From Candidatus Levyibacteriota bacterium (GTDB taxonomy: Bacteria; Patescibacteriota; Microgenomatia; Levybacterales; UBA12049): a DNA stretch of 64,000 nt. Positions 23,909 to 47,503 of this stretch are shown here, piece after piece. Every line of letters starts with the position of its first letter. Position 1 is the first letter of the stretch. Below the pieces are notes generated by a model that saw only the letters and a list, made by a program, of their open reading frames with translations, made no database searches and was not told where the DNA came from. The DNA is taken from positions 121,661 through 185,660 of the forward strand of contig JAYRIM010000028.1 of assembly GCA_041906785.1 (NCBI GenBank), in the 5' to 3' direction. The position numbers and the translations under genes are program-made.

Positions 23909-23965
23909 GTTGTATTGTTGAATTGTTATATTGTTAGGAACAATAAAGCAATATAACAATAGCAA
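23909..23965. repeat. intergenic TTGTTATATTG inverted-repeat element, copy A
   Basis: GTTGTATTGTTGAATTGTTATATTGTTAGGAACAATAAAGCAATATAACAATAGCAA: direct TTGT(T)ATATTG units followed by their reverse complement CAATATAACAA. Confidence 0.6.
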
Positions 23966-24569
23966 TTTTAAACATATGAAGGATAAAAACGGAAACCAAC
24001 TCACTCAAAAAGAGTTGCAGCGAAAATTGAGAAATCGATTAGCCACAGTAAGTTTAGAATTTACTGTGTACTTTCTACATCTTGTCGGATGTATCCCCAG
24101 TCATACTATTCGTCGTTTTTTCTATTCATTAGCTGGTTTACAGATTGGAGAAGGTTCTACGATTCATATGCATGCCACATTGTACAATCCAATGAATATT
24201 ACTATTGGCCAGGATACTTTAATAGGTGAGGGAGTTGTTCTAGATGGGAGAGATAAACTTTCTATCGGAGATCATGTCGATATGGCTTCTGAAGTTATGA
24301 TTTACAATGCTGAACATGATGTTCAAAGTGAAGATTTTCATGCAGTCACAGCAGCTGTCCGTGTTGAAGATTATGTATTTATAGGACCTCGTGCAATCAT
24401 ATTACCCGGAGTAACTATTGGAAAAGGTGCTGTAGTAGGGGCAGGTGCTGTAGTCACAAAAACAGTAAATCCTTTTGAAATAGTAGGTGGTGTTCCTGCA
24501 AAAGTTATAGGTGAAAGGAAACAAAAAGATCTTCATTATAAACTCGGTAGAGCAGCATGGTTCAGGTAA
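23931..24569 (+). CDS. hexapeptide-repeat sugar O-acetyltransferase (left-handed beta-helix)
   Basis: Repeated [LIV]G-x4 hexapeptides: IGPRAIILPGVTIGKGAVVGAGAVV. ORF starts at a TTG; the true start may lie downstream. Confidence 0.7.
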   Translation: MLGTIKQYNNSNFKHMKDKNGNQLTQKELQRKLRNRLATVSLEFTVYFLHLVGCIPSHTIRRFFYSLAGLQIGEGSTIHMHATLYNPMNITIGQDTLIGEGVVLDGRDKLSIGDHVDMASEVMIYNAEHDVQSEDFHAVTAAVRVEDYVFIGPRAIILPGVTIGKGAVVGAGAVVTKTVNPFEIVGGVPAKVIGERKQKDLHYKLGRAAWFR

Positions 24570-24605
24570 AAGTATTTAGTATAAAGTATTATGTATTAAG
24601 TATTT

Positions 24606-25451
24606 ATGCAATTAATTTCTATTTTAATTTTGAGCTACAATACTAAAGATTTGCTCAGAATTTGTTTGCAATCTATCTATAAAAATCTATCAAACGTTTC
24701 GTTTGAAGTGATTGTACTAGACAACGCATCTAAAGACGGTAGTCCTGAAATGATTAGAAAAGAATTTCCTGATACGAAAATAATAGTTTCTGAAAAAAAT
24801 TTGGGATTTGCCAAGGGAATGAATGAAGCTGTCAAAAAAGCAAAAGGAGACTATTTGTTATTCCTTAATTCAGATGCTATCTTAACAGACTCTACAGTAT
24901 TTAATATGCTTACATTTTCAGAGTCATCGGCAGATGTTGCTATAGTTGGTGGACAGTTACTCGATGCTGATGGTACTCTACAGCGATCCTTTGGAAATTT
25001 TTATACTCTTCCCATGGCGTTTATTCTGTTATTCGCTGGAGAGAAGGTGGAATTAGCATTACAAAATACCAAAACAATAAAGCAGGTTGATTGGGTAAAT
25101 GGAGGTTTTATGCTTATTAAAAAAGATATTTTTGAGAGAGTAAAAGGGTTTGATGAACGGTATTTTATGTATGTAGAGGATATGGATTTATGTTATAGAG
25201 TAAAACAAGCAGGATATAAAACCTTTTTTTACCCCACAGCAACTGCTATTCATACAAATCAAGGCAGCTCAAACCGTTCATTTGCTATTCAACACATTCA
25301 TAAAGGATTACTCCTTTTTTATAAAAATCATAAATCTTATCTAGAATATCTGATTCTTAAAGCACTTATTCTTTTAAAAGAAACAATATTAACGTTTATA
25401 GGAATGATAACTGGTAACTCATATTTGAAAACGACATATAAACATACATAA
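24606..25451 (+). CDS. GT2 family glycosyltransferase
   Basis: ISILILSYNTKDLL ... VIVLDNASKDGS ... FLNSDA ... YVEDMDLCYR. Confidence 0.8.
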   Translation: MQLISILILSYNTKDLLRICLQSIYKNLSNVSFEVIVLDNASKDGSPEMIRKEFPDTKIIVSEKNLGFAKGMNEAVKKAKGDYLLFLNSDAILTDSTVFNMLTFSESSADVAIVGGQLLDADGTLQRSFGNFYTLPMAFILLFAGEKVELALQNTKTIKQVDWVNGGFMLIKKDIFERVKGFDERYFMYVEDMDLCYRVKQAGYKTFFYPTATAIHTNQGSSNRSFAIQHIHKGLLLFYKNHKSYLEYLILKALILLKETILTFIGMITGNSYLKTTYKHT

Positions 25452-25454
25452 AAA

Positions 25455-28628: not shown

Positions 28629-28630
28629 TT

Positions 28631-30091
28631 ATGGCAAAACTCTTCTCAAAAAATACATTGTTGCTATTATTTGTAGTTATAGTAGGTTTTCTCTTGAGGC
28701 TTTATAAAATTGAAAATCCGATTGCTGATTGGCATAGTTGGAGACAGGTCGATACGTCAGCTGTATCAAGAACTTTCGTAACAAACGGTTTTGATATTTT
28801 ACATCCTCGTTTTGAAGATATTTCGAACGTTCCTTCGGGAAAAGATAATCCTGAAGGATATAGATTTGTAGAATTTCCTCTCTATAATATTTTTCAAGCA
28901 GGTTTTTATACTATATTTGATACATTTTCACTGGAAGTTTGGGGAAGATTAGTAACAATATGTTCCTCACTACTAGCAGGAATATTCTTATATGTATTAG
29001 TAAAGAGGCATTCAGATGAACTTACTGCATTATGTGTGTCAATCGTGTACCTTACATTACCTTTTAATGTCTATTTCGGTAGAACTGTTCTTCCGGATCC
29101 TTCTATGATTATGACAATTCTTGCTGGGATTTATTTTTTTGACAATTATGTAGAAAAAACAAATAAGAAAAAAGCACTTTACTACATGCTTGCAGTTGTT
29201 TTTACCGCTTCTTCATTTCTGCTGAAACCGTACGCATTATTTTTTACACTCCCTATGTTTTATTTGGTGATTAAAAAATATCCTCGGAGTTTTTTTAAAC
29301 AATGGCAACTTTGGCTTTTTATTTTTTTAACAGTTTTTCCTCTCCTAGGCTGGCGTCAATGGATATCGCAATTCCCTGAAGGAATTCCGGCGAGTGATTG
29401 GTTATTTAATGCAGGTAACATCCGTTTTACTGGAGCATATTTTTACTGGATTTTTGCTGATAGAATTGCACGATTAATCTTAGGATATTGGGGAATAACA
29501 TTTTTCATTTTTGGAATACTGTTTGGAAAAACAGTATTAAAAGAGAAGAAAGACTTTGGTTTTTTTATCAGTTTTATTTTTTCATCACTTTTATATCTCA
29601 TTATTATTGCTAGAGGAAATGTCCAACATGACTATTATCAAATTGCGATTGTTCCTTCTCTATCTATTTTTACAGGATTAGGATTACGTTTTTTGATTAA
29701 CAATTCTCTACACGAATTAGATAAAAAAATCACAATCACTGCAGTAACTATATTACTTTTATTTATGTATATGTTTAGTTGGTATTTTGTTAGAGATTAT
29801 TACAATATAAATAATAAATCGATAATAATAGCTGGTGCTGCTGTGGATGAGAAAACACCTAAAAATGCGAAAGTAGTTGCTCCTTATGATGGAGATACCA
29901 CGTTGCTTTATTATACATATCGACAAGGATGGGCAAGTTTTCAAAATCCTCTTCCTGAATTAATTCAAAAAGGCGCAACACATCTTGTTCTCATTAACCC
30001 TTCAGAAAAAGATCGTGAGATTGGGAAAACATATAAAATTATTGCAGATACGAAAGAATATATTTTATTTGATTTAAGAAAATCACCATGA
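28631..30091 (+). CDS. ArnT/PMT-like GT-C glycosyltransferase (GT39/GT83-like)
   Basis: N-terminal LLRLYKIENPIADWHSWRQVDTSAVSRTF is typical of the ArnT/PMT family; ~11 TM helices. Confidence 0.6.
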   Translation: MAKLFSKNTLLLLFVVIVGFLLRLYKIENPIADWHSWRQVDTSAVSRTFVTNGFDILHPRFEDISNVPSGKDNPEGYRFVEFPLYNIFQAGFYTIFDTFSLEVWGRLVTICSSLLAGIFLYVLVKRHSDELTALCVSIVYLTLPFNVYFGRTVLPDPSMIMTILAGIYFFDNYVEKTNKKKALYYMLAVVFTASSFLLKPYALFFTLPMFYLVIKKYPRSFFKQWQLWLFIFLTVFPLLGWRQWISQFPEGIPASDWLFNAGNIRFTGAYFYWIFADRIARLILGYWGITFFIFGILFGKTVLKEKKDFGFFISFIFSSLLYLIIIARGNVQHDYYQIAIVPSLSIFTGLGLRFLINNSLHELDKKITITAVTILLLFMYMFSWYFVRDYYNINNKSIIIAGAAVDEKTPKNAKVVAPYDGDTTLLYYTYRQGWASFQNPLPELIQKGATHLVLINPSEKDREIGKTYKIIADTKEYILFDLRKSP

Positions 30092-31296
30092 ATATTTTAT
30101 TAATTTCTTCATATTTGCCTTATCCGCTTTATTCTGGTGGACATATCCGACTATTTAATTTAATTAAAGAACTATCGAAAAAGCACAGAATAACATTGGT
30201 TTGCGAGAAACGTGCGTACCAAACTGAAAAGGATATTATGGAAGTCGCCAGGTACTGTGACACTGTTCATACAGTTCACAGGAATAAGCAGTGGAGTCTA
30301 AAAAACATTATAAAAACAGGTTTCTCATTTAAGCCTTTTTTATTAGTCGGTCATGACCATAATGATATGAAGAAAAAGATTAAGGAGTTACTTGAGAAAA
30401 AAAAATTTGATGTCATACATGTTGAAACATTCTACGTACTGCAAAACGTTCCGGAGACTGAAATTCCGATAATACTTGTAGAACATAATATTGAATATTC
30501 AGTATATAAACGGTACGCAGATCAGGCAAAAATTTTTCTTCGTCCATTCTTTTATATTGATGTTAAAAAACTAGAAATCGCTGAAAAAAAATCATGGAAT
30601 AGAGTACATAAAGTAATCGCAGTTTCAGAAATTGAAAAGAAAAAAATAGGAATAGATGGCGTAGAAGTAGTGCCAAATGGTGTAGATCTAGGTCTTTTTA
30701 CTTTTAGAAAACCACTAGAAAAATCATATCATTCTGTTGCTAAACAAGCGCATATGCCAGAGAAAGAGTTGTTATTCATAGGTGATTTTTCTTGGATTCA
30801 AAATCGTGATGCAGTAAAATGGATTATTAATGATATTTGGCCATATTTGTTACGCGCAGTTGAAGGAGAAATTAAAATTAAGTTCCACATCGCAGGAAGA
30901 CAGATTCCTTCGGAAATTAGATCTTTAAGCACATATGACAGCATTATATATACAGAAAATTCACCAAATACTGTAGAACTTTTTAAGAATGCAGATGTAC
31001 TATTAGCGCCGATACGAGTAGGGGGTGGAACGAGCTATAAAATATTGGAAGCAATGGCTACAGGCGTCCCCGTAGTAACAACATCGTTAGGTATTGAAGG
31101 TTTACAGGCCAAACCTGATGTTCATGCTATATGTGCAGACGAAACACAAGCTCTGGTTGAAAAAACAGCTCGGCTTTTGAGAGATACAACTCTCTATGAG
31201 AATGTAGGAAAAAATGCACGGAAACTCATAGAAGAAAAATATAATTGGAAAGTAATTGCAAAGAAATTAGAAGAAGTGTATGAAGCTATAAAATAA
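30088..31296 (+). CDS. GT4 family glycosyltransferase
   Basis: C-terminal GGGTSYKILEAMATGVPVVTTSLGIEG donor-binding region. Confidence 0.8.
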   Translation: MNILLISSYLPYPLYSGGHIRLFNLIKELSKKHRITLVCEKRAYQTEKDIMEVARYCDTVHTVHRNKQWSLKNIIKTGFSFKPFLLVGHDHNDMKKKIKELLEKKKFDVIHVETFYVLQNVPETEIPIILVEHNIEYSVYKRYADQAKIFLRPFFYIDVKKLEIAEKKSWNRVHKVIAVSEIEKKKIGIDGVEVVPNGVDLGLFTFRKPLEKSYHSVAKQAHMPEKELLFIGDFSWIQNRDAVKWIINDIWPYLLRAVEGEIKIKFHIAGRQIPSEIRSLSTYDSIIYTENSPNTVELFKNADVLLAPIRVGGGTSYKILEAMATGVPVVTTSLGIEGLQAKPDVHAICADETQALVEKTARLLRDTTLYENVGKNARKLIEEKYNWKVIAKKLEEVYEAIK

Positions 31297-31360
31297 TTGT
31301 TATATTGCTAAATTGTTATATTGTTTTAGGATTAGAGCGATGTAACAATACAACAATCCT
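31294..31360. repeat. intergenic TTGTTATATTG inverted-repeat element, copy B
   Basis: AATTGTTATATTGCTAAATTGTTATATTGTTTTAGG...GTAACAATACAACAATCC between the GT4 stop and the GT2 start. Confidence 0.6.
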
Positions 31361-32266
31361 ATGTTTGATCTCTCGATAATTATCATTTCTTTTAATACAA
31401 AAGAATTTTTAAAAAAATGTTTACTTTCGATTAGAGAAAATACCTCGAAACCATTAAATTATGAAATTATCGTTGTTGATAATAACTCTTCAGATGGAAC
31501 AAAGGATGAGATTTCCAATTTTTCTTCTCAAATTTCCAATTTCAAATTGATTGAGAATGAAGAGAATGTTGGGTTCGCAAAAGCTTGCAATATTGGTGTA
31601 AAACAAGCAAAAGGCAGATATATATTATTTCTTAATCCTGACACGCATATTTTTAAACATACTTTAAATGAAATGGTTTCCTTTATGGATTTTCATAAAG
31701 AAGCTGGAGCCGCAACATGTTTTGTAGAATGGCCAAATCGAAAACTAGATGATGGTGCTCATAGAGGATTTCCAACTCCCTGGAATGCTTTTTGTTATTT
31801 TTCTGGTTTAGCGAAATTATTTCCGAAATCTTTATTGTTTAATGGGTATAATTTAGGGTTTAAGCATCTTGATACTGTGCATGAAATTGATGCACTAACT
31901 GGAGCTTTTATGATAGTAAGAAGAGAGGCTGGAGAAGAAATTGGATGGTGGGATGAAGATTATTTCTTTAATGGTGAAGATCTGGATTTTTGTTTTAAAT
32001 TAAAAGAAAAAGGTTGGAAAATATATTTTATTCCGACTGTAAAAGTCTTACATTATAAAGGAGTCTCGAGTGGCATTAAATCTATATCACGTGATATTAC
32101 TACTGCCGATAAAGCATTACGAATAAAAATAACAAAGGCGAGGTTTGATGCAATGCGATTATTCTACAAAAAGCATTATAAGAATACATATCCAGGAATT
32201 CTTACTTGGTTAGTAATGCTCGGGGTATCCTTAAAAGAAAAATTAGCGCTTCGAACAATATCCTAG
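31361..32266 (+). CDS. GT2 family glycosyltransferase (carries an in-frame insert of ATTTCCAATTT repeats)
   Basis: LSIIIISFNTKEFL ... IIVVDNNSSDGT ... FLNPDT ... FFNGEDLDFCFK. Confidence 0.8.
   Translation: MFDLSIIIISFNTKEFLKKCLLSIRENTSKPLNYEIIVVDNNSSDGTKDEISNFSSQISNFKLIENEENVGFAKACNIGVKQAKGRYILFLNPDTHIFKHTLNEMVSFMDFHKEAGAATCFVEWPNRKLDDGAHRGFPTPWNAFCYFSGLAKLFPKSLLFNGYNLGFKHLDTVHEIDALTGAFMIVRREAGEEIGWWDEDYFFNGEDLDFCFKLKEKGWKIYFIPTVKVLHYKGVSSGIKSISRDITTADKALRIKITKARFDAMRLFYKKHYKNTYPGILTWLVMLGVSLKEKLALRTIS
31510..31541 (+). repeat. two ATTTCCAATTT copies separated by 10 nt inside the GT2 gene. Shares the 18-mer AATTTCCAATTTCAAATT with the tract at 22331-22365.
   Basis: GAGATTTCCAATTTTTCTTCTCAAATTTCCAATTTCAAATTG encoding EISNFSSQISNFKL in the loop after the DGT motif. 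Confidence 0.7.
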
Positions 32267-32359: not shown

Positions 32360-33499
32360 ATGAAAATCGGGATTGATGTTCGACTCTGGAATGAGACTGG
32401 AGTAGGTCGGTATATTCGGAATTTGGTTAAAAACTTGCATGAGATTGATAAAGTTAATGACTATATTTTATTTGCAAGAGCAACTGATGTAGAAAGTATT
32501 AAGTATTATGTATCAAGTATTAAGTGGAAAATAGTTGTTGTAAATATTCGATGGCACTCTTTTAAAGAACAGTTGAAGTTTCCCCAAATTCTCTATAGAG
32601 AGAATCTAGATCTTATGCATTTTCCTTATTTCTCCGTTCCATTTAACTATAGAAAACCTTTTATTGTAACCATACATGATCTTATCATTTATCATTATTC
32701 GACAGGAAAAGCATCGACGCTTCCTTTACCTTTTTATCAGTTGAAACGTTTAGGATATAAATTTGCTATAAAGCAAGCTATTCATAACGCTAAAAAAGTA
32801 ATTGTCCCTCTGCAATCGGTTAAAGAGGACGTTATAGAAACCTTACAAGCTGATCCAAAAAAGATTATAGTAACTCAAGAAAGTGTTGATGAAGAAATTA
32901 ACAATGCTAATAGACAAATGATCAATCCACAATTAAAATCAGAGAATTATTTTCTTTATGTTGGTAATGCTTATCCACATAAAAATATTCAAACGTTACT
33001 GCAGGCGTTCGAATCATTTAAAAAACAAATTGTCCATCATAACGTTAAGCTATTTTTAGTTGGAAAAAAAGATTATTTTTATTCTCAGTTAGAAAACAAT
33101 TTAAAAGAAAAACAGGGAAATGCAGTACATATTTTTCATACCATTGATGATTCTATGTTACATGAATTGTATGATAATGCGATTGCTCTCATAGCACCAT
33201 CTTTTATAGAAGGTTTTGGTTTAGTACCCTTAGAGGCAATGGCGAACAATTGTCTGGTAATAGCGTCTGATATTCATGCGCATCGAGAAGTTTGTCAAGA
33301 CGCTGCGGTTTACTTTCCTGCTCATGATCAATCAGAATTAACAAATAGAATGATTGAAGTTTTTACACAGACTAATAATTCAATATTTGAAAATTTGAGA
33401 CAAAAAGGATTGAAAAGAGTAAAAAACTTTTCCTGGAAGCGTATGACTCAGGAAACATTGAAAATCTATGAAAGTTGCATTAGTGTACGACAGAGTTAA
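32360..33499 (+). CDS. GT4 family glycosyltransferase (carries an in-frame AGTATTAAGT repeat insert)
   Basis: MKIGIDVRLWNETGVGRYIRNL ... EGFGLVPLEAMANNCLVIASD. Confidence 0.8.
   Translation: MKIGIDVRLWNETGVGRYIRNLVKNLHEIDKVNDYILFARATDVESIKYYVSSIKWKIVVVNIRWHSFKEQLKFPQILYRENLDLMHFPYFSVPFNYRKPFIVTIHDLIIYHYSTGKASTLPLPFYQLKRLGYKFAIKQAIHNAKKVIVPLQSVKEDVIETLQADPKKIIVTQESVDEEINNANRQMINPQLKSENYFLYVGNAYPHKNIQTLLQAFESFKKQIVHHNVKLFLVGKKDYFYSQLENNLKEKQGNAVHIFHTIDDSMLHELYDNAIALIAPSFIEGFGLVPLEAMANNCLVIASDIHAHREVCQDAAVYFPAHDQSELTNRMIEVFTQTNNSIFENLRQKGLKRVKNFSWKRMTQETLKIYESCISVRQS
32494..32526 (+). repeat. AGTATTA(A/T) repeat insert inside the GT4, near-identical to intergenic 24583-24607
   Basis: AAGTATTAAGTATTATGTATCAAGTATTAAG (in-gene) versus AAAGTATTATGTATTAAGTATTT (intergenic upstream of the GT2 at 24606). 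Confidence 0.65.
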
Positions 33500-34553
33500 T
33501 AAATGGGGCGGGGCAGAAAGAGTACTTTTAGCCTTTCACGAATTATTTCCAGATGCTCCTCTATATACATCGGTTTATAATCCTGAGACTGCTCCATGGG
33601 CAAGTGCGTTTACAATAAAGACTTCGTTCCTACAAAATCTGTCATATTTTCGTAATAAACATGAACTGCTTCCTCTCCTTATGCCAATCGCTTTCGAAAG
33701 CTTTATTTTTGATGAATACGATCTTGTTATTTCTATAACAAGTGAATTTGCGAAAGCAATAATTACGAAACCTGGGACAAAGCATATTTGCTATTGTTTA
33801 ACACCTACCCGCTATTTATGGAGTGGATATGATGAATATTTTAAAAACAAAGTTTTACGGACTTCTACGAAATTCTTAATACGAAATCTACGAAAATGGG
33901 ATCGAATTGCAGCACAAAGACCAGATGCATATATCGCTATATCGAAAGAAGTACAGGGGAGAATTAAAAAATATTATGGAAGAGAATCAGAAGTTGTGTA
34001 TCCACCAGTAAGTTTACAAAATTCAAGATTTAAGATTCAAGATTTAAGAATAAATAAAAAAGAACAATATTTTTTAATTGTGTCACGGCTTGTAAGATAT
34101 AAAAGAATCGATCTTGCGATACGAGCATGCAATGAACTGCAATTTCCACTTAAAATTATTGGTATTGGAAGTGAGGAAAAAAGATTAAGGACAATTGCTG
34201 GTCCTACAATTGAATTTGTGGGCTCTGTAGATGAGGAAACACTTGCGCGATACTATTCTCAATGTCAAGCACTTCTTTTCCCTGGATACGAAGATTTTGG
34301 ATTAGCAATGGTTGAAGCACAGCTTTTCGGAAAGCCAGTGATCGCATTCCATAAAGGTGGTGCAGAGGAGATAGTTCTTCATGGAAAAACAGGTTTACTC
34401 TTCGATTCACAAACAGTTGCATCTTTGTCCTCTGTTTTAGGAGCATTTGAAAAAAATGACTTTGATAAGGAAGTTATTATGAAACACGCAGCTCAATTTA
34501 ATAAAGAACATTTTAAGAAAGCTTTCTTATCTGAATTAAAGAAATTATTATGA
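33468..34553 (+). CDS. GT4 family glycosyltransferase
   Basis: MKVALVYDRVNKWGGAERVL ... EDFGLAMVEAQLFGKPVIAFHKGGAEE. Confidence 0.8.
   Translation: MKVALVYDRVNKWGGAERVLLAFHELFPDAPLYTSVYNPETAPWASAFTIKTSFLQNLSYFRNKHELLPLLMPIAFESFIFDEYDLVISITSEFAKAIITKPGTKHICYCLTPTRYLWSGYDEYFKNKVLRTSTKFLIRNLRKWDRIAAQRPDAYIAISKEVQGRIKKYYGRESEVVYPPVSLQNSRFKIQDLRINKKEQYFLIVSRLVRYKRIDLAIRACNELQFPLKIIGIGSEEKRLRTIAGPTIEFVGSVDEETLARYYSQCQALLFPGYEDFGLAMVEAQLFGKPVIAFHKGGAEEIVLHGKTGLLFDSQTVASLSSVLGAFEKNDFDKEVIMKHAAQFNKEHFKKAFLSELKKLL
34021..34052 (+). repeat. 2x 14-nt direct repeat (ATTCAAGATTTAAG) inside GT4 33468..34553
   Basis: AAATTCAAGATTTAAGATTCAAGATTTAAGAATAAA encoding SRFKIQDLRINKK in the inter-domain linker. 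Confidence 0.6.
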
Positions 34554-35704: not shown

Positions 35705-35705
35705 C

Positions 35706-36371: not shown

Positions 36372-36375
36372 AAGT

Positions 36376-36425
36376 TATGAGTTATGAGTTATGAGTTATG
36401 AGTTGTAGGTTGTAAGTTGTAGGTT
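36376..36425. repeat. heptamer tandem repeats (4x AGTTATG, then 3x RGTTGTA) with a GC-rich imperfect hairpin downstream (to ~36470)
   Basis: AAGTTATGAGTTATGAGTTATGAGTTATGAGTTGTAGGTTGTAAGTTGTAGGTTG followed by CCCGCCTGCAACG...GCGGGCAGG. Confidence 0.8.
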
Positions 36426-36504
36426 GCCCGCCTGCAACGTTTTGCGTAGCAATGCGGGCAGGTGGGTTGGGAATTAAAAAATAAAGTGTAGTTACATTTG
36501 ACAT

Positions 36505-38517: not shown

Positions 38518-38518
38518 C

Positions 38519-38556
38519 TCACGAATCACACGAATTTCTTTACGAATGATGCGAAT
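38519..38556. repeat. array of ACGAAT/GCGAAT hexamers upstream of the GxxExxY gene; the inverted counterpart (ATTCGC x3, with the palindrome AATTCGCGAATT) lies at ~38925-38960
   Basis: CACGAATCACACGAATTTCTTTACGAATGATGCGAATTTG upstream; AATTCGCGAATTTCGCAAAAAGATTCGCATAA at the 3' end of the gene. Confidence 0.65.
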
Positions 38557-39590: not shown

Positions 39591-39628
39591 TACCTTCTAA
39601 CTCGACAATAGAATGGTATAATCATGAG

Positions 39629-40504
39629 ATGCATAATTGGAAAGGTTTTTCTGCGTTATTAATCACTGGTTTTCTCTCTGGGACAGTAGGTATTTTTATC
39701 CGCTATCTTAATAAGTATATCAGCGGTCCTCAACAGATAATTTATTTAAATGTATTTGTTTTTTGTTTGTTATTGTTATTAGTATTAGTGCTAAGAAAAA
39801 AGATTTCATTTGATAAAAAAATGATCAAGTTTATTTTTCTGTATGGAATTTTTTATGGTTTTGGAGGGACACTTTATACACTATCAATATTGACCACAAA
39901 AATTTCGACAACGGTATTTGGTATATATGCAAGTATACTCTGCTTCTCATTACTTTTCGGTTTTTTTCTTTTTAAAGAAAAAATTACTACTAAAAAAGTA
40001 TTAGCTCTTATTCTCGCATGTATCGGCTTCTTTTTATTTACCTATCCATTATCTTTTCAAAGGTTTGATATAGGCTTAGGATTTAGTTTAGTTTCTGGCT
40101 TTATGGCAATTGCTGCAAACTCTATTGGAAAATATTTAGGAAATAAAGTGGATAACATACTGTTAGTTTTAGCGCGAACTATTGGAATAGGATTAGGGGG
40201 CGTGATATTCGCACTTTATCAGAAAGAATCACTTATTCCTGCTTTTACTTCAGAGTCATTTATTCTCTTGTTTATACTTGCAGGGATAATCTTAACAGCA
40301 TCATTTACAATCCTTATCGGTTTTAACAATTTCGATTTAAATTTAGGTGCGATACTTGTTTCCTCGGAGTTACTTTTCGCTACAACATTTGCCGCTGTAT
40401 TTTTTAAAGAATATCCAAAAAACTTGGAATATATCGGTGGTTTTTTTATTTTATGTGCGATTTGTATAGCTAACCTTTCATTTAGGAAAAAAAAGCAGAA
40501 CTAA
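39629..40504 (+). CDS. EamA/DMT-family transporter
   Basis: 10 TM helices arranged as two 5-TM repeats. Confidence 0.55.
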   Translation: MHNWKGFSALLITGFLSGTVGIFIRYLNKYISGPQQIIYLNVFVFCLLLLLVLVLRKKISFDKKMIKFIFLYGIFYGFGGTLYTLSILTTKISTTVFGIYASILCFSLLFGFFLFKEKITTKKVLALILACIGFFLFTYPLSFQRFDIGLGFSLVSGFMAIAANSIGKYLGNKVDNILLVLARTIGIGLGGVIFALYQKESLIPAFTSESFILLFILAGIILTASFTILIGFNNFDLNLGAILVSSELLFATTFAAVFFKEYPKNLEYIGGFFILCAICIANLSFRKKKQN

Positions 40505-40549
40505 TCGAACTCTTTCCGTAAAGAAATTTATCTGCTATCATACCCACAT

Positions 40550-42055
40550 ATGGCTGAGAACATTATGGATAAAATTGTCGCACTTGCAAAACGCCGTGGG
40601 TTTATCTATCCAGGTTCAGATATATATGGTGGTCTGGCTAATACATATGACTATGGACCAATGGGTACTGAGTTACTCCGTAATATAAAAAATCTTTGGT
40701 GGAAAACATTTGTTCATAATAGAGAAGATATAGTAGGTCTTGATGCAAGTGTGATTTCTCATCATCGTATATGGGAAGCGTCTGGACATGCGACAGGGTT
40801 TTCCGATGCACTTGTTGATTGTAAAAAATGTAAAAACAGAAAACGAGCTGATCATCTAATAGAAGAGTGGTTAGAGGAACACAGTAAAGATGTCGATATT
40901 GATGTCATCTTGAGTGGAACGAAGGATCTTATGCAAGATTCTTCGCCAAGGGCTCAGAATGACAAGGCAGTCAAAATAACAAAAGAAGAGTTAGAAAAAG
41001 CTCTTGAACTTAAAAAAGTTGAAGGTTGGTCTGAAGAAAAGATGGATGAGTTTATTAAAAATACTCGTATTCCATGTCCTCAATGTAAAGCAGTTGATTG
41101 GACACCTGTGCGTAGATTTAACCTTCTTTTTCCGGTAAAGCTCGGAATTGTCGAAGGAGAACAAAGTCTGGCTTATCTTCGTGGAGAGACAGCCCAAGGA
41201 ATGTTTGTTGATTTTCGACACGTAGTCGATTCCACTCGTGTTCGTTTACCATTTGGTATCGCACAGTTAGGAAAAAGTTTTAGAAATGAAATAACGTTAG
41301 GTAATTCCGTCTTTAGAACAATAGAGTTTGAACAAGGAGAAATAGAATATTTCTTCGATCCGGAAAAAACACTTTGGGAGAAATTATTTGAAGAATGGAA
41401 GGAACAGATGTGGAATTTCGTTTTGTGGGAACTTGGAATTAATGAGAAAAATGTCAGATGGCGAGTACATACAGATGAAGAACGATCTTTTTATAGTAAA
41501 CGGACAGAAGATCTCGAGTATAATTTTCCTTTCGGATATAAAGAATTATGGGGATTAGCATATCGAACTGATTATGATTTAAAACAGCACATGCAGTTTT
41601 CAGGAAAAGATCTTTCTATCACTGATCCTTATACCCAAAAGAAAGTTATTCCTCATGTTATCGAGCCTGCTGTTGGTATTAACCGTTTGCTTTTGATGGT
41701 GTTATGTGAAGCATATTCTGAGATAGATGACCGGGTAGTGCTAAGTTTGAAACCAAAACTTGCTCCATATAAAGTCGCAGTATTTCCATTACTTGCGAAT
41801 AAAGAAGAATTAGTGAAAAAAGCGAGAGAAATCTACGGTTCTTTAAAGCCTCATATGAATATCGCATGGGATGATAGAGGAAATATTGGTAAAAGGTATT
41901 TATACCAAGATGAGATTGGTACACCATGGTGTGTTACAGTAGATTTTCAAACACTTGAAGATGGAACAGTAACTGTTCGCGATCGCGATACGGCAGAGCA
42001 AGAAAGAGTGAAAGTTGAAGAGCTTACAACACACTTTAATAGCAGGTTAGCATAA
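40550..42055 (+). CDS. glyQS: glycine--tRNA ligase (dimeric alpha2 class II type)
   Basis: GLANTYDYGPMGTELLRNIKNLWW, class II motifs, C-terminal anticodon-binding domain. Confidence 0.9.
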   Translation: MAENIMDKIVALAKRRGFIYPGSDIYGGLANTYDYGPMGTELLRNIKNLWWKTFVHNREDIVGLDASVISHHRIWEASGHATGFSDALVDCKKCKNRKRADHLIEEWLEEHSKDVDIDVILSGTKDLMQDSSPRAQNDKAVKITKEELEKALELKKVEGWSEEKMDEFIKNTRIPCPQCKAVDWTPVRRFNLLFPVKLGIVEGEQSLAYLRGETAQGMFVDFRHVVDSTRVRLPFGIAQLGKSFRNEITLGNSVFRTIEFEQGEIEYFFDPEKTLWEKLFEEWKEQMWNFVLWELGINEKNVRWRVHTDEERSFYSKRTEDLEYNFPFGYKELWGLAYRTDYDLKQHMQFSGKDLSITDPYTQKKVIPHVIEPAVGINRLLLMVLCEAYSEIDDRVVLSLKPKLAPYKVAVFPLLANKEELVKKAREIYGSLKPHMNIAWDDRGNIGKRYLYQDEIGTPWCVTVDFQTLEDGTVTVRDRDTAEQERVKVEELTTHFNSRLA

Positions 42056-42407: not shown

Positions 42408-43202
42408 CTAGGCAACTTTTCTGTAAAACTGAGATAAAGGAATAGGAGATTGATCTTGGGGAACAACAATTGTTCCAGGTATTATGACACGCATACGTAA
42501 ATCTTCACCTCGAAATTCACCATCTGTATCCAATCCACATCCTTCAAGCCATCCATTCGGGGTATAGTATCCAGGAAATCTAATCGGTTTTTTCAAGAAT
42601 TGTTCCTGTTCCTCATGTTCTGCTCCCCTTTTTATAAATAACACACTTTCTTCTAAATTCGGATACAGTTCAGCAAGTCTCTCTCTAACTGCAAGTATAC
42701 TAAAACCTGTATCAAGTACATCATCTAACGTGATAACTGGCCCTGTTGAAGGTCTTAGTCTTTCTAATTCCTGTTGTATAAAACGAGGTTGTCTGTTCGA
42801 TGTCATTTTATCGTCATAACTTGAGACATGGAGTGAATGATAACTAAAATCTTTAATATCTCTTCGTTGAAGCGCAGAGAATAACCAACCTGCGAAAGGT
42901 AAGCCTCCTTCTAACATAATTAAAAATTTTGCTTTCTGCTTTCGAATCTCAGGAGCCATTTTATCTGCAATTTTGTCTACTTCTTCAAGAACTTGTTCAT
43001 GGGTTAATAAAAGTTCATATTCCACACCATTTTCTACATAGTACATACTTTTTTCAGAATGAGGGTTGGGTTGTGTTCCGGCTCCTTCAGGAATATGCAC
43101 CTTTGGTAATCCATTTGGTGTTAATATGCTGCTTTCGCCATTGGGTCGTAAAACAGTTCGATATCTTTCCGGTGTATAGATTATTCCTTCTTTTATTGCC
43201 AT
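42408..43202 (-). CDS. phosphoribosyltransferase-domain protein (HGPRT-like)
   Basis: VITLDDVLDTGFSI matches the PRPP-binding motif (hydrophobic4-DD-x-x-DTG); intermediate GC. Confidence 0.55.
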   Translation of the reverse strand: MAIKEGIIYTPERYRTVLRPNGESSILTPNGLPKVHIPEGAGTQPNPHSEKSMYYVENGVEYELLLTHEQVLEEVDKIADKMAPEIRKQKAKFLIMLEGGLPFAGWLFSALQRRDIKDFSYHSLHVSSYDDKMTSNRQPRFIQQELERLRPSTGPVITLDDVLDTGFSILAVRERLAELYPNLEESVLFIKRGAEHEEQEQFLKKPIRFPGYYTPNGWLEGCGLDTDGEFRGEDLRMRVIIPGTIVVPQDQSPIPLSQFYRKVA

Positions 43203-43228
43203 ATTTTATGTATAAAATTTTGGTGATT

Positions 43229-43258
43229 GGGGGGCCCCGATGTGAAATCGGGACCCCC
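43229..43258 (-). terminator. GC-rich hairpin at the left boundary of the high-GC island (candidate terminator of the minus-strand phosphorylase gene)
   Basis: GGGGGCCCCGAT-gtgaa-ATCGGGACCCCC (11-bp stem with one mismatch); an A/T-rich run follows on the minus strand. Confidence 0.4.
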
Positions 43259-43304
43259 TCCGCACCAGTTGACTCGAGTTGAAGGCGTCAGTGAGTGTAG
43301 CTTC

Positions 43305-44351
43305 TTACTGCTGGGACAGCGCTTCCTGGTAGACCTCAGGCCGGTGGATGAGCAACTCCCGGCACGTACAGTTCGTGGGGATAGGAGCTGTCTCAAGCAG
43401 GAGAGCCTCGAATTCCAGAATCCGCCGCGGGAGCTGCTTGACGTAGAGGCTGTCGAGCGTCGTGTTCAGGCCGAACTTGGGGTCGGTTACATCCTGCCCT
43501 TCGCAGTCGTTCGCGACGATGCAATAGTAACCTTCGTCCATACCAAGATGCCTGCACAGGATTGGCGTAACGCTATCACCGTGGAGCATGGCGAAGGGGG
43601 ATCCTTCGCGCTCGGAGATGGTCTGCATCATGTGTCGCCAGACCATAGTTTCGCCTTCGCTCTCGAACGTGCCGCCTGTTGGACTCCGCAAGATTACGCG
43701 GACGTCGCTGGGGCGGTGAACCTTCGGGAAGAACTCGAGGTCCTCTGCCAGGTCTGCCATCCACCCGCTCAGGCTGACGCAGAAGGGATCCTTCATGCGT
43801 GCCAAGTTCGGGAGGACCCCGCCTATCCCAGTGCCGGGGAGATGCCCGGCCATGTTATCGTTCCGATAAAAGGACCATGGGAAGACGATGTCGCCGGGAC
43901 GAATCGCGTCCTGAAGGTTGGCTGGTGAGCGGGGGTCGTTGACCCCATGGGTACCACCGACGAAGAGAACACGAACGCCAGCCTTCCACAGAATCCAGAA
44001 GAGACGCCATTGTCCTTCATGGGGATGCGTGAATCGTTCACCCCGTACCCCGCCGTAGGACGGAATCCAGATGACGTCACGTCCGGATGAGGTGGTGAAC
44101 TGAGTAACCAGCGGGCCGAGGCCGTAAGGCGTGCGCACACGGGCGTTGAAGTTGAGTACCCAGCCCCTCGCCTGGCGGTCGGCGATGACCTGCTCAGGCG
44201 TGACGCCCCAGAGCGGCGAGCCAGTGATGCTCGCCACGGATGCTGACGGTCCATCATAGGCGAAGTTCAGAACAGCGGGATCTTTATATCCTCCCAACAT
44301 CGGTGCCTCCATAGATATGTTGCATGATGCGTGCCTCCACTGTGGAAACAA
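43305..44351 (-). CDS. MTAP/PNP-family nucleoside phosphorylase (high-GC island). True start probably an internal Met (~44312).
   Basis: LFWILWKAGVRVLFVGGTHGVNDP ... IRPGDIVFPWSFY ... CIVANDCEG parallels MTAP ([23 protein letters not shown] ... PGDIVIIDQFIDRT ... ATDYDCW). Confidence 0.45.
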   Translation of the reverse strand: MFPQWRHASCNISMEAPMLGGYKDPAVLNFAYDGPSASVASITGSPLWGVTPEQVIADRQARGWVLNFNARVRTPYGLGPLVTQFTTSSGRDVIWIPSYGGVRGERFTHPHEGQWRLFWILWKAGVRVLFVGGTHGVNDPRSPANLQDAIRPGDIVFPWSFYRNDNMAGHLPGTGIGGVLPNLARMKDPFCVSLSGWMADLAEDLEFFPKVHRPSDVRVILRSPTGGTFESEGETMVWRHMMQTISEREGSPFAMLHGDSVTPILCRHLGMDEGYYCIVANDCEGQDVTDPKFGLNTTLDSLYVKQLPRRILEFEALLLETAPIPTNCTCRELLIHRPEVYQEALSQQ

Positions 44352-45147
44352 CGCGCATGAAACCGAGTGACAGGACTGCGCTGGCGATTGCCAGGTCGAC
44401 GAGCAAGTCCATCCGATACCGTGTAGTGAAGGTGTACAACAACCACCCGAGGCCGCCGCCGGCTGTCAGCCATTCCACGACCACTGCTGAGAGGATTACC
44501 ACACTCGCCGACGTCTTCAAAGCTGCGAAGAGCATCGGCAGCGAATAGTAGATCCGTACATGGCGGAACGTGGCCCATGGCGTGATGCCTGGCAAGGTCT
44601 GGGTATAGTCCATCACGTCCGACTCCACTTGATGCAACCCTGTGAAGAAGTTGATCAAGGTGGGGAAGAACGTTGCCAACGACACGAGCGCGACTCTCAT
44701 CTTCCAGTTAGGGCCGAGGACGAGCATCAGCATCGGGATCAGAACGATAAACGGCACGCTCTTCACCCAGACTGATGTTCGGAGTACGACCGGTTTTAGC
44801 CATGGCACGAATACCATGACGATCGACAGCATGATCGCGATGCTGTTGCCGACCACGAACCCGGATAGAGCATCTAGCAGCGTTAGGCCGATGTTCTGGA
44901 TGATCCAGATACCGTTCGGAATCCGTAATGCCAGATCCTGTTCCCACAGGGCAACGATGACCTTATGGGGAGCAGGGAGTATGAACTGCACATAGTCGGG
45001 GGCGAAGTGAAGGTAGATGTAGACGAGTAGTATCAGCCCCCCGATGTGCAGGATTAGCCCAAGACGTTCGACGAACTGAGTAGCTCCGCGCTTGAGTAAC
45101 GAGAGCCAACCAGTTGGCTGAGGATGATGTTTCAATGCTACTCTCAT
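44284..45147 (-). CDS. ABC transporter permease (NitT/TauT / binding-protein-dependent family)
   Basis: 6 TM helices; conserved EAA-like region ...ALKTSASVVILSAVVVEWL; high GC. Confidence 0.7.
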   Translation of the reverse strand: MRVALKHHPQPTGWLSLLKRGATQFVERLGLILHIGGLILLVYIYLHFAPDYVQFILPAPHKVIVALWEQDLALRIPNGIWIIQNIGLTLLDALSGFVVGNSIAIMLSIVMVFVPWLKPVVLRTSVWVKSVPFIVLIPMLMLVLGPNWKMRVALVSLATFFPTLINFFTGLHQVESDVMDYTQTLPGITPWATFRHVRIYYSLPMLFAALKTSASVVILSAVVVEWLTAGGGLGWLLYTFTTRYRMDLLVDLAIASAVLSLGFMRVVSTVEARIMQHIYGGTDVGRI

Positions 45148-45159
45148 ACGTAGCCCTCC

Positions 45160-46239
45160 TTACTTCAGGTAGTCGAGTGTCATCAGCTCCTGGAGTGTGG
45201 GACGGCGGCGAATCACGTTGTTTGTCATGTAGAAGTCGAGTGCTTCCTCGATCCGCTTGCCGTCCATCCAGAGAAGACCGTTAGACTTGGTAGACTCGCT
45301 AGTCATCATCGGCGCCTGGAGTTGAATACGGCGCCTCAAGATTTGCTCGGTTTCCGAACCACCGAACGCGAGGGCGGTCTTGACGGTGAAGTCCTGGTCG
45401 TTGATCATGCGCTGCATGCCGTTGCGCAGGCCGCGCAAGAAGGCACGCATGACCTGCTTGCCTTCAGGGGTTTCGAGAAACGACCGCTTGGTGAACACGA
45501 TGTCCGCGTAGAACGGTACACCCCACTGGTTATAGCGGAGCGCCTTCCAGGGCAGGCCCTGCTGCTCGAGTGCGAGGGGTTGATTGACAACCCAGTATGA
45601 AGCGAAATCCACCGACTGCGTGAGCAAATCGGCGGGATTTTCGCCTCCGATGCGGACGATGGTGACGTCACGATCATTTACGCCGTTCTTGTGGAGAAGG
45701 GCGATGAGCTGCGCCTCGCTTTGGACACCGACACGCTTGCCGATCAGGTCCTTGGGCGTGAGCTCGCGCGCCCGCTGCTCTGGCGTCAGGTTTTTCTCCA
45801 GAATGACATATCCGAGAGGATGCTCCTGGAGAATCGCACCCGTCATTACGATGGGTACGTTTTCCGCGACCTGCGGCACGATGCCGTCCAGGCTGGCGGT
45901 AACACCGATCTCAGCCTCGCCGGACAGAACGTTGTTAAGAGCGGGAACTTGAGGCCCACCCTCCTTGAACGTGACGGCGAGTCCTTCTTGTTCGAAGTAT
46001 CCGCCTTTGACAGCATTGTACAGGGCGCAGGACTCGCAGTTATGTCGCCAGGGAAGCTGGACGACGAGCGGGCGAAGGGGTTTGGGAGTAGCGGTAGCAG
46101 CAACGGCGACAGTCGGTGCGGCTTTCGGAGCCGCCGTAGTGACGGCCTTAGGTGCGGCCGCCTGAGGAGCGGGCTGCTGGCAGCTGATGAGCAGGCCAGC
46201 AAGGACAAGCAGAACCAAGAGACGTGGAACACGCTGCAT
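45160..46239 (-). CDS. ABC transporter substrate-binding lipoprotein (NMT1/THI5-SsuA-like)
   Basis: MQRVPRLLVLLVLAGLLISC lipobox, then an Ala/Pro-rich linker and an SBP domain. The ORF track extends 25 codons upstream to 46314. Confidence 0.7.
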   Translation of the reverse strand: MQRVPRLLVLLVLAGLLISCQQPAPQAAAPKAVTTAAPKAAPTVAVAATATPKPLRPLVVQLPWRHNCESCALYNAVKGGYFEQEGLAVTFKEGGPQVPALNNVLSGEAEIGVTASLDGIVPQVAENVPIVMTGAILQEHPLGYVILEKNLTPEQRARELTPKDLIGKRVGVQSEAQLIALLHKNGVNDRDVTIVRIGGENPADLLTQSVDFASYWVVNQPLALEQQGLPWKALRYNQWGVPFYADIVFTKRSFLETPEGKQVMRAFLRGLRNGMQRMINDQDFTVKTALAFGGSETEQILRRRIQLQAPMMTSESTKSNGLLWMDGKRIEEALDFYMTNNVIRRRPTLQELMTLDYLK

Positions 46240-46397
46240 GGTAATCCTCCAGTGAACTGATGCTTTGAGTTGGTTGAGACATGGTAGACCACATTCAAAT
46301 AATGTGATCTCCACTGTTCCATACTTGTCTTTCCTAAGGACAAGTGAGAAATCTAAGGAACAGCAGAATGAAAAATGCCAAACATTTTAAAGGTTCC

Positions 46398-46470
46398 AGG
46401 AGAGACAAAAGAGCCAAATGGGCCAAAGGTTTAGTACCCTTCTGTCTCTTTTGGCTCCTCGGTCCCATTT
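46398..46470. repeat. hairpin repeat family 2 (AATGGGCCAAAGG core), copy 1
   Basis: GAGACAAAAGAGCCAAATGGGCCAAAGGTTTAGTACCCTTCTGTCTCTTTTGGCTCC: an inverted repeat forming a long stem. Confidence 0.55.
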
Positions 46471-46647
46471 TTCCCTTATTATCCCTTGACATTCTTTATA
46501 CTGCTGCTCCTTGATAAGTTGAAAAAATAAATAGCCTTCAACTTGTCAAGGTGCGAAAAATAGTTATTTCTGCAAGCGACGTCTTTTCGCGATTGAAAAT
46601 ATGTTGCTTGGAAAAAGAAAAAAAATATTTCTGTCTCTAAACGAAAA

Positions 46648-46672
46648 AACTCCTCGCGTGTGAGGAGTTTTC
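46648..46672. terminator. bidirectional intrinsic-terminator-like hairpin in the gene-free spacer
   Basis: AACTCCTC-gcgtgt-GAGGAGTT, followed by TTTTC on the + strand and preceded by the complement of TTTTTTCG on the - strand. Confidence 0.45.
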
Positions 46673-46859
46673 AGAATATTGACAGCAAGTAATTATTAAT
46701 AGAAGACAGGGCTCGATGAGATTATTAAAAAGTAAATAAAGCGGTTTAGTAATGACGTTTCTCAACAGCATCACTACTATAGTATTATGTGATTTTTATC
46801 ACATGTCAATAGGGAATTGTCTAGTTTTTGTCTAGTTTTTGTTTGAAAATTTGAAGCAT

Positions 46860-46887
46860 TTGACAAACAAGTGTAAGTTGTTACAAT
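46860..46887 (+). promoter_or_regulatory. near-consensus sigma70 promoter (TTGACA-16-TACAAT) abutting the start of the 46899 gene, giving a leaderless or near-leaderless mRNA
   Basis: TTGACAaacaagtgtaagttgtTACAAT; the predicted TSS is ~5 nt before the ATG at 46899, leaving no room for an SD. Confidence 0.45.
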
Positions 46888-46898
46888 GTAACTAATTG

Positions 46899-47411
46899 AT
46901 GAATAATCAAAAGTTATTTATTGGTTTTGGCATATTGTTAGTTGTACTCCTCCTTGGTGGTGGTTTATTTATTATGTCGTCCGGTAAAAAATCTAGCCAA
47001 TCTCCTACACCTTCTGCTGAGCAATTCATGATAGAAAAACTTTCTCCAGAAGATATTGGTCTAGAATTAATTCCAAAAACGCTTCCAAATGATGGAAAAC
47101 AGATAAAAGTTATAGTGAGTAAAGTTGCTGATATAAAACATTTAGCATATGAAATTACATACGAAGCAGATATTCCGAAAAGTGAATTGCCTCCAGGTGA
47201 GACAGAAGGACGTGTTGAGCGTGGTGTAGGAAATGATGATGTATCGATCAATTCATCTGATAAAAAATACGAATCGAAGTTTTTAGATTTCGGATCTGAG
47301 TCAAAAGGTGTGGTTCGATATGACACAGGAGTAACTGAAGCGAAGATCGTGATGAAAGTCACGAAACGGGACGGAAAAGTCTATCAGGTTGAAGATTCAG
47401 TGAAATTCTAA
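46899..47411 (+). CDS. secreted/membrane-anchored hypothetical protein
   Basis: N-terminal TM/signal (LFIGFGILLVVLLLGGGLFI); ATG at 46899 preferred over TTG at 46896. Confidence 0.4.
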   Translation: MNNQKLFIGFGILLVVLLLGGGLFIMSSGKKSSQSPTPSAEQFMIEKLSPEDIGLELIPKTLPNDGKQIKVIVSKVADIKHLAYEITYEADIPKSELPPGETEGRVERGVGNDDVSINSSDKKYESKFLDFGSESKGVVRYDTGVTEAKIVMKVTKRDGKVYQVEDSVKF

Positions 47412-47503
47412 TTGTTATATTGCTCTATTGTTATATTGTTAACTTCGCACAAGCGAAGTTTTTTATTTGTTTAGCAATAAAACAATACAACAATATAACA
47501 ATT
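47410..47503. repeat. intergenic TTGTTATATTG inverted-repeat element, copy C (longest, with a central stem-loop)
   Basis: AATTGTTATATTGCTCTATTGTTATATTGTTAACTTCGCACAAGCGAAGTT...AGCAATAAAACAATACAACAATATAACAATT. The central AACTTCGC-ACAA-GCGAAGTT hairpin is followed by TTTTTTATTTG. Confidence 0.6.

Follow-up and report, generated by a model that had tools for sequence, protein, structure and literature searches.

We analysed a 64,000-nt window of a Candidatus Levyibacteriota contig (JAYRIM010000028.1), in which three intergenic sites share a palindromic repeat. The window, by which we mean this whole stretch, has a GC content of about 32% and carries, in order, a long glycan locus encoded on one strand, a high-GC transporter island and a division and cell wall (dcw) cluster (mraZ-rsmH-ftsL-ftsI). 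The closest genome matches of its RsmH are in Candidatus Levybacteria (56%) and a Patescibacteria bacterium (55%). No Rfam family was matched over the window at gathering thresholds, and it holds no tRNA or tmRNA genes. The three sites lie at 23909..23965, 31294..31360 and 47410..47503, with no strand assigned. Each is a copy of a palindromic, non-coding repeat that is dispersed over many loci; in this family the arm order is fixed and the core conserved, a short array of the octamer ATTGYTAW being followed by its reverse complement (the mirror array). The family turns over fast, is not kept at orthologous positions and is not tied to glycan genes.

Copy 1 occupies the spacer between a GT4 glycosyltransferase gene (22719..23885, plus strand; Pfam Glycos_transf_1, E = 1e-41) and a hexapeptide-repeat acetyltransferase gene (23976..24569, plus strand; Pfam Hexapep), whose start agrees with the gene call on Logan contig L259. 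It begins 24-28 nt past the upstream stop (23885) and ends 11-16 nt ahead of the ATG at 23976. Its left array (23914-23937) has three clear units, ATTGTTGA ATTGTTAT ATTGTTAG, and its right array (23937-23960) reads GGAACAAT AAAGCAAT ATAACAAT, with a loop that is nearly absent (GG). Copy 2 lies between a GT4 gene (30088..31296, plus strand; assigned by Pfam) and a GT2 glycosyltransferase gene (31361..32266, plus strand; Pfam Glycos_transf_2, E = 1e-30). The four units of its left array (31296-31327) overlap the TAA stop of the GT4 gene; a loop (aggatt, 31328-31333) and a short, degenerate right array of 2-3 units (31334-31357) follow, and the ATG of the GT2 gene stands directly after the element, at 31361. 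Copy 3 has four units in each arm (47411-47442 and 47471-47502). It lies 3' of an open reading frame (ORF) of 171 aa (46896..47411, plus strand; no Pfam match), whose TAA stop its left array overlaps, and before mraZ (47650..48093, plus strand; Pfam MraZ, and synteny with relatives), the next gene and the first of the dcw cluster. The first-pass annotation, which had placed the three copies correctly, had them all start near a stop codon, as they do, and end just before the next start, which is not so for copy 3: it ends 147 nt short of mraZ, with the mraZ promoter and three MraZ-box-like repeats in between.

An 11-mer, TTGT(T)ATATTG, had been taken as the repeat unit. Tandem Repeats Finder gave instead a period of 8 in every arm, with 2.9-3.9 units per arm, so that the true unit is the octamer ATTGYTAW and the 11-mer is one unit plus the start of the next. 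The arrangement itself, direct units and then their reverse complement, was recovered by repeat finding. The three left arms group as one direct-repeat family (D5), those of copies 2 and 3 being 94% identical over 32 nt; the arms of copy 3 form a 33-nt inverted repeat (I5) that is 88% complementary, and arms are complementary across copies too (inverted repeats I16 and I22). Within the window every left array (3/3) and every right array (3/3) is paired. With one mismatch allowed, TTGTTATATTG occurs 17 times in the window, 11 of them within the three sites, against 3.9 +/- 2.0 times in dinucleotide shuffles, none of which (0/100) reaches 17. Assembly error does not explain the copies, since a Logan assembly made independently from run SRR26835457 has all three with 0 mismatches.

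The RNA folding proposed as a check gave predicted sense-strand energies of -18.3, -17.0 and -32.8 kcal/mol for copies 1, 2 and 3 (z = -4.3, -4.1 and -8.4); the antisense strands fold about equally well. The central GC hairpin and T-run described earlier in the longest copy are real: a terminator scan called 47441-47460 in copy 3, and the intrinsic terminator (47441..47466, plus strand) consists of the stem AACTTCGC / GCGAAGTT with the loop ACAA, followed by the T-run (z of the loop hairpin, -4.0). The same scan made no call at copies 1 and 2, whose stems are AU-rich and have no T-run, so that a true intrinsic terminator is seen in copy 3 alone. There it most likely ends the transcript of the 171-aa ORF, which starts at the promoter at 46860-46887.

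That promoter is a strong one (TTGACA, 16 nt, TG-extended TACAAT), and the ORF, which thus has its own promoter and terminator, is kept: homologues of 164-172 aa lie directly upstream of mraZ in 3/3 syntenic relatives (L201, L202 and L204, with RsmH 61-67% identical), the same three used for the orthology test below. The likely mraZ promoter is at 47567-47595 (TTGACA, 17 nt, TGTAAT), and three direct CTGGYGATT repeats with a 10-nt period (47604-47633), which look like a MraZ operator, stand just 5' of the mraZ ATG. L201 keeps both the promoter and these repeats; in place of the repeats, L202 and L204 carry three AGTAG/GGTAG boxes, likewise with a 10-nt period. We considered binding of MraZ at the element itself and rejected it from the sequence alone, as the MraZ-box repeats form a separate array.

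Metagenomic contigs were scanned with ATTGTTATATTGYTNNATTGTT, a pattern for the left arm only. At least 120 contigs matched, and all metagenome counts given here are among the matches listed. An array finder that required at least three units at 8-nt spacing, each core with at most one mismatch, found 206 arrays in 0.72 Mb of matching loci and 3 in 1.26 Mb of unrelated bacterial loci. Pairs were counted in the matching loci and in a set of viral loci. In the matching loci 42 arrays were followed by a mirror array within 120 nt and none showed the reverse order (binomial p = 5e-13); a stricter regular expression gave 36 vs 0. As the right arm was not part of the query, the pair count independently confirms the architecture. 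Viral contigs with the same pattern served as a negative control (51 loci, 0.47 Mb): their 66 arrays formed 0 pairs in either order (Fisher p = 3e-6 for pairing in metagenome vs viral loci), and the palindrome is therefore not a by-product of AT-rich DNA. In 40 of the 42 pairs the loop measures -8 to 38 nt, the other two being 90 and 108 nt, and the modal arrangement is 4+4 units. Pairing is confined to short range: beyond 120 nt there is no excess of convergent pairs (13, vs 19 divergent), and no sign that the arrays are the ends of a larger mobile element.

The family reaches genomes of GC 0.30-0.54 in at least two lineages, with the same motif kept throughout. Contigs L171 and L116 (GC 0.53-0.54) are from Peregrinibacteria: L171 encodes a CarA that shares 68-74% identity with proteins of Peribacteraceae and Peregrinibacteria, and a protein of L116 exactly matches one that NCBI names Peregrinibacteria. 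A match to LpxB in one of the flanking genes cautions that some hosts may lie outside the candidate phyla radiation (CPR). A literature search for the motif itself returned nothing relevant, and one for CPR intergenic repeats nothing specific; the octamer-array palindrome appears to be undescribed so far and widespread in uncultivated bacteria.

The conservation of the unit was measured in a way free of selection bias, by anchoring only on the first ARCAAT after a left-arm match and reading the positions +8, +16 and +24. The unselected units found there keep A (.77-.87), R, C (.64-.79), A (.68-.74), A (.66-.83) and T (.85-.91), and the two spacer positions are weakly conserved (W; T.62). Conservation is thus real in the 6-nt core but not in the spacer; among the units, ATTGTTAT (25%) and ATTGTTAA (12%) are seen most often. 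Because the ATTGYT core is so strongly conserved beside free spacer positions, these sequences suggest that some protein recognises the unit, for its spread or for binding.

Of 35 paired elements, 27 lie between co-directional genes, 5 between divergent and 2-3 between convergent ones. The junctions are thus mostly tandem, without being always tandem or convergent. An element usually comes to within 0-20 nt of the stop before it and the start after it; in many cases its first unit shares bases with the TAA stop (TAATTGTT) and its last CAAT is followed by the ATG. Stable folds, of -14 to -37 kcal/mol, were predicted in 27 elements. Among loops of at least 14 nt, only 7/23 have a significant hairpin of their own, the copy 3 terminator included. 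The 63 genes that flank 33 paired-element loci belong to 112 Pfam families with no functional theme (examples are GT2, FemAB, GyrA, MreB, a PilB-type ATPase, ClpP, CarA/B, RelA and ribosomal protein L14). Arrays without a partner arm were also oriented relative to genes: in the mRNA, arrays in the 40 nt before a start codon appear as ARCAAU 26 times and as AUUGYU 6 times (p = 5e-4), and those in the 40 nt after a stop codon as AUUGYU 22 times and as ARCAAU 11 times. We had at one point taken this as a polarity of the arrays relative to transcription (AACAAU before starts, AUUGUU after stops) and have withdrawn that idea, because the data say only that the ATTGYT strand points, in every case, away from whichever gene end is closest, which is the geometry of a half-palindrome and nothing more.

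Orthologous spacers in the three syntenic relatives reveal how fast these sequences turn over. The spacer that corresponds to copy 3 keeps the mraZ promoter and the MraZ-box repeats in L201, L202 and L204, and lacks the palindrome and the terminator in all of them (3/3); L201 has an ATTGYT element of its own, between YdjM and MurE. Between mraZ and rsmH, the window, L201 and L204 each have a different repeat family, and L202 has just a 13-nt gap. In the ftsL|ftsI spacer, the families again differ between the window and L201, and L202 and L204 have no repeat. These observations bear directly on the earlier proposal that the palindrome is an operator at which a dimeric regulator controls the glycan locus. 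In its favour, two of the three window copies are positioned between glycosyltransferase genes and the arms form inverted repeats. Against such an operator, copy 3 lies at the dcw cluster, the genes flanking the 33 loci represent 112 Pfam families, the position of the elements is between stop and start codons and not at promoters, and the orthologous spacers of the relatives lack them.

Within single genomes, copies can share more than their arms. Loops are identical or similar between copies in L108, in L160 and among L171, L132 and L187, where the gene contexts differ; as read from the sequences, such sharing points to duplicative spread. A composite module, in which an AGTTAAA array, an ATTGTT array and a CCGTCATTCTGA palindrome are joined, occurs four times in L083 and twice in L149.

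We favour a reading in which the three sites belong to a duplicating family, similar to repetitive extragenic palindromic (REP) sequences, that acts as a co-transcribed stem-loop between cistrons. Taken as a whole, we find this explanation credible while stopping short of calling it probable; for the element itself, a role as a co-transcribed stem-loop between genes seems the most likely one. Copies would spread by duplication, as REP sequences and their paired form, REPIN, do, and their arms would then change by slippage. Lying inside operons, an element would be transcribed with its neighbours, and a stem-loop of 20-35 bp, rich in AU, would join the upstream stop to the downstream start. The upstream message might thereby be protected or processed, read-through might be damped, or the region of the downstream start might be occluded until the ribosome on the upstream gene opens the stem. 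Occlusion of this kind would matter in a genome almost without Shine-Dalgarno sites. Indeed, a Shine-Dalgarno-like 4-mer is found at only 8/59 window genes, and with so few such sites the expression of internal cistrons must rely on coupling or re-initiation. In copy 3 the arms would simply bracket a genuine intrinsic terminator.

A number of results weigh against this reading, both as regards an RNA stem-loop and as regards duplication. The sense strand folds better than the antisense strand in 14 elements and worse in 13, and there is no G.U signature of sense-strand RNA. Mirrored units match at the variable positions 5, 7 and 8 at rates of 0.58, 0.58 and 0.51, where the null of unrelated arms gives 0.66, 0.56 and 0.44 (standard deviation about 0.035). 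With no co-variation of the arms above the null, pairing as such is not visibly selected, and since paired arms match no better than unrelated ones, their complementarity stems from the shared core and not from compensation. Unit number varies, with an arm-to-arm correlation of r = 0.14. Arrays with no partner arm number 129, of which 107 are intergenic, and they fill spacers as well. A role between cistrons of one RNA cannot apply to the 5 divergent and 2-3 convergent contexts. The source genome has only 3 copies in about 74 kb, that is, in the window and the ~10 kb added to it through Logan contigs, which held no further copy. Finally, the boundaries bear no trace of insertion: the mean best boundary repeat, as a measure of target-site duplication, is 2.03 nt vs 2.04 +/- 0.17 when flanks are shuffled between elements; flanks and boundaries show no conserved insertion motif; and there is no transposase among the first 25 of the 112 flanking-gene Pfam families, a survey that did not include a dedicated search for RAYT, the REP-associated transposase.

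The boundary results also count against a miniature inverted-repeat transposable element (MITE), another candidate of the first-pass annotation, to which the inverted-repeat arms had lent some appeal. Besides the missing target-site duplication and flank motif, the window copies share no internal sequence, their loops being unrelated (GG, aggatt and a terminator); their arms are variable tandem arrays whose length changes by whole units, and no long-range convergent excess marks a parent transposon (13 vs 19 beyond 120 nt). That the element is either a MITE or a glycan-locus operator strikes us as exceedingly improbable. Two more ideas were rejected on the sequence alone: an integron attC site, because the order of the GTT and AAC motifs does not fit one and the neighbouring genes are no cassettes, and a CRISPR array, because there are no spacers.

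Lack of co-variation, lone arrays and a conserved core keep two other explanations alive. According to the first, the arrays are binding sites on double-stranded DNA, where a small oligomerising protein, of the ribbon-helix-helix or nucleoid-associated kind, would sit on each ATTGYT core and build two convergent filaments of about four protomers, serving as a roadblock, an insulator or a structural site. Many features agree with it: the strict 8-nt period in which a conserved 6-nt core alternates with two free positions, the strictly convergent orientation (42 to 0), the mode of four units per arm and the preservation of one motif at GC 0.30-0.54, together with the existence of lone arrays, the arms that do not co-vary and the folding that favours neither transcript strand. 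Against it, no candidate protein was identified. The sites are found between stop and start codons within operons, not at promoters, and the relatives do not have the element in their orthologous spacers; several other unit families of the same architecture stand in equivalent spacers, and each would need a protein of its own; and the 7/23 loops that extend the palindrome with unique sequence suggest a hairpin more than an operator. We regard the binding array as unlikely, on balance.

The second explanation is that the arrays have no function at all and are products of slippage, simple sequence repeats with long units that arose independently in each spacer of genomes prone to repeats of 7-9 nt and lasted only where they were harmless, the palindrome being produced by template switching at hairpins. 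The window is certainly full of 7-9-nt arrays of 4-5 units with other sequences, even in coding regions, and long perfect arrays are seen in contigs L084, L189 and L152. Unit number varies, orthologous spacers turn over quickly, and the over-representation of heptamer repeats in bacteria has been attributed to slippage (PMC4692102). Slippage would not, however, lead us to expect the same degenerate unit at many unrelated loci, in distant lineages and at very different GC, nor a core far better conserved than the spacer in unselected units, where decay should be uniform. The two arms co-occur far above chance, all window arrays are paired and the reverse arrangement is never seen. Template switching, in turn, predicts mirrored arms, which are not observed, and loops are shared between copies within genomes. 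We regard functionless slippage products, too, as unlikely.

A further possibility is that the left-type array is a series of overlapping extended -10 promoter elements, firing toward the loop from both sides. The idea comes from the resemblance of TGTTATATT to TGnTATAAT: the unit consensus can be read as TG-n-TAWATT, and the real promoter nearby, at 46860-46887, has TTGTTACAAT as its extended -10. Many mRNAs of the source genome also seem to be leaderless, the -10 element standing 6-9 nt ahead of the ATG. A TATAAT-like hexamer stands at that distance from the start of many window genes (for example at 39629, 40550, 52235, 52865 and 62356, at 34619 and, on the minus strand, at 8868-9875), a pattern which suggests that leaderless mRNAs are widespread in this organism. 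Yet a scan with the consensus sigma-70 promoter gave no match at the elements, and its totals were near the shuffle expectation (49 vs 52 in one region, 31 vs 23 in the other). The -11 A position is just 60% A, arrays near gene starts face away from the gene (26 to 6), and start codons follow the last unit at distances that favour no particular phase; the absence of a fixed spacing argues against a -10-like role and against a Shine-Dalgarno-like one. Moreover, the array of copy 3 runs straight into a terminator, and in tandem contexts one of the arms would drive antisense RNA. We consider a promoter array very improbable.

The element is of interest for the genomes in which it is found. CPR genomes are tiny and densely packed, and hardly any of their regulatory signals have been described. 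A repeat that fills their scarce intergenic space with the same 6-nt core at GC 0.30-0.54 is either a successful selfish element or a shared signal. A bolder proposal, for which we see only a slim chance, is that ATTGYTAW arrays are a cis-element common to CPR lineages, for which a conserved factor would act in trans as the reader, either a DNA- or RNA-binding protein with a footprint of octamers spaced 8 nt apart or a domesticated mobilising enzyme in the style of REPINs. In that event the succession of array, loop and mirror would organise expression between cistrons in genomes poor in Shine-Dalgarno sites, for instance by bringing stop and start side by side for re-initiation. Whatever its role, the element offers a compact test case for the expression of operons without Shine-Dalgarno sites, and a marker for binning and strain comparison.

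The arrays also call for caution in gene calling, for they contain TTG start codons and can read as hydrophobic peptides. In some contigs an ATTGYT array does lie inside an ORF as a hydrophobic stretch (L096, 2980-3011; L089), and that of L096 encodes ...ILVLIVILLYCYIAFS..., which resembles the N-terminus of a signal peptide. Either coding sequences now and then take in an array, or the ORFs have been called too long and run through it.

Octamer palindromes are not the only short-unit repeats in the window. Heptamer arrays of 4-6 units lie inside coding regions at 22329-22366, 22823-22861, 32494-32525, 34017-34049 and 48368-48398. One of them, a perfect AAATATC array of 5.6 units, stands near the N-terminus of the GT4 gene at 22719-23885, and another lies in an adjoining GT4-like ORF of 179 aa. 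As the gain or loss of one 7-nt unit shifts the reading frame, these glycosyltransferases could be phase-variable. The 179-aa ORF (22190-22729) has the appearance of the N-terminal half of a GT4 protein, with the full-length GT4 gene directly after it; truncation or a frameshift may have given rise to this gene copy. The two break points of Logan contig L259, 22832 and 36402, fall within perfect heptamer arrays. Further spacer arrays and array palindromes of 7-9-nt units are found at 48092-48184, 49338-49426, 46390-46470, 36373-36426, 24570-24604 and 38518-38556, with units that include ATTTCCA (mraZ to rsmH), the CAAAGGAGA type (after ftsL and near 46400), AGTTATG/GTTGTAG, AAGTATT and CACGAAT; in the relatives some of these spacers hold yet other unit families, and L204, for instance, has GAATCAN x4 together with the mirror array. 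At 51117-51180, 51457-51555 and 40903-40928 there are palindromes of the TGTCATTCTGAGCG...GAAGAATC type. Related elements of the GTCATCCYGA type fill the mraZ|rsmH and ftsL|ftsI spacers of L201, and in the recurring composite module of L083 and L149 a palindrome of the TGTCATTCTGAGCG...GAAGAATC type is fused to the ATTGTT and AGTTAAA arrays.

Between the glycan locus and the dcw cluster lies the high-GC island (42408-46314, minus strand; 57% vs about 32%), whose genes specify an ABC transporter, among its parts a permease and a binding protein of the NMT1/THI5-like kind. L201 has the island too, again GC-rich (0.54 vs 0.36), and it is absent from L202 and L204, in which the neighbouring genes are much closer (in L204 GlyRS is followed by the 166-aa ORF, and in L202 one gene lies between). 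The island is probably a horizontally acquired insert and not an assembly chimera.

Several groups of small repeats invite comparison with the octamer element. Correia/NEMIS, ERIC and BOX are small, modular intergenic repeats that are co-transcribed and form long hairpins in mRNA, which can be processed; Correia elements are processed by RNase III and carry a TA target duplication, and BOX is modular, with a tandemly repeated middle module. They have a fixed and longer consensus, of about 100-150 nt, and none of them is known to be built from octamer arrays. Arrays bound by ribbon-helix-helix proteins, such as the 8-bp metboxes of MetJ, the ACTC+4 boxes of ParG and the heptads of omega, consist of 7-8 bp units placed head to tail without gaps, in direct and convergent orientations, with a conserved core that alternates with free spacer positions. 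Judged by analogy, the octamer architecture is compatible with operator arrays of this type. The MetJ, ParG and omega arrays stand at promoters or plasmid partition sites, a few per replicon, whereas the octamer sites lie between stop and start codons at many unrelated loci.

The likeness to REP sequences, bacterial interspersed mosaic elements (BIMEs) and REPINs, which the first-pass annotation had already raised, holds in part. Like them, the octamer elements are short, extragenic and multi-copy, come in inverted pairs with the ability to form hairpins, are placed within operons between genes or at 3' ends, and turn over quickly between relatives; mRNA stabilisation and termination, the roles proposed for REP/BIME/REPIN, are likewise considered here. 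On the other hand, a REP unit is an imperfect palindrome of 20-40 nt, whereas the octamer arm is not self-complementary and only both arms together are palindromic. The octamer units start with ATTG and have neither of the GTAG and CGTC heads that define the REP classes (PMC3733652), and the copy density, 3 in about 74 kb of the source genome, is low. By such analogy the octamer family resembles REP/BIME/REPIN in function, and differs from that class in the palindromic unit and the head that define it.

The closest published case is that of the convergent heptamer arrays, GGGAATC in Xanthomonas and GGGGA(C/T)T in Nostoc/Anabaena (the cyanobacterial short tandemly repeated repetitive, or STRR, type), whose function is unknown (PMC4692102). 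In Xanthomonas, 70-75 cases per genome have two convergent arrays on opposite strands, able to form stem-loops, and most of the repeats occupy the same gene pairs in the two xanthomonads compared (PMC4692102). The octamer element agrees with the heptamer arrays in its tandem units of 6-9 nt placed head to tail, its strong intergenic bias and its preference for about four units, and with the Xanthomonas arrays in forming convergent pairs that lie mostly between co-oriented ORFs and rarely between divergent ones (PMC4692102). Even the strand rule is the same, the G-bearing strand being on the coding side downstream of an ORF and on the non-coding side upstream of one (PMC4692102). The differences lie in the hosts, which here are CPR bacteria, in the units, which are degenerate at three positions where the heptamers are near-perfect, and in their persistence, the octamer elements not being kept in relatives, though those relatives are much more distant than the xanthomonads. 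The octamer is also AT-rich, with one G per unit and no G-runs, and cannot form a G-quadruplex. The authors of the heptamer study linked the four-unit preference of Xanthomonas and Nostoc to quadruplex formation (PMC4692102); since an octamer with the same properties cannot form quadruplexes, that explanation of the four-unit preference and of the convergent geometry may be unneeded. Were the arrays indeed a cis-element shared by CPR lineages, the preference for four units and the rule that the G-strand points into the spacer would be a general principle apart from G-quadruplexes. Judging from its sequence, then, the element stands closest to REP/REPIN and to the convergent GGGAATC arrays of Xanthomonas, and is best described as a short-unit intergenic array palindrome.

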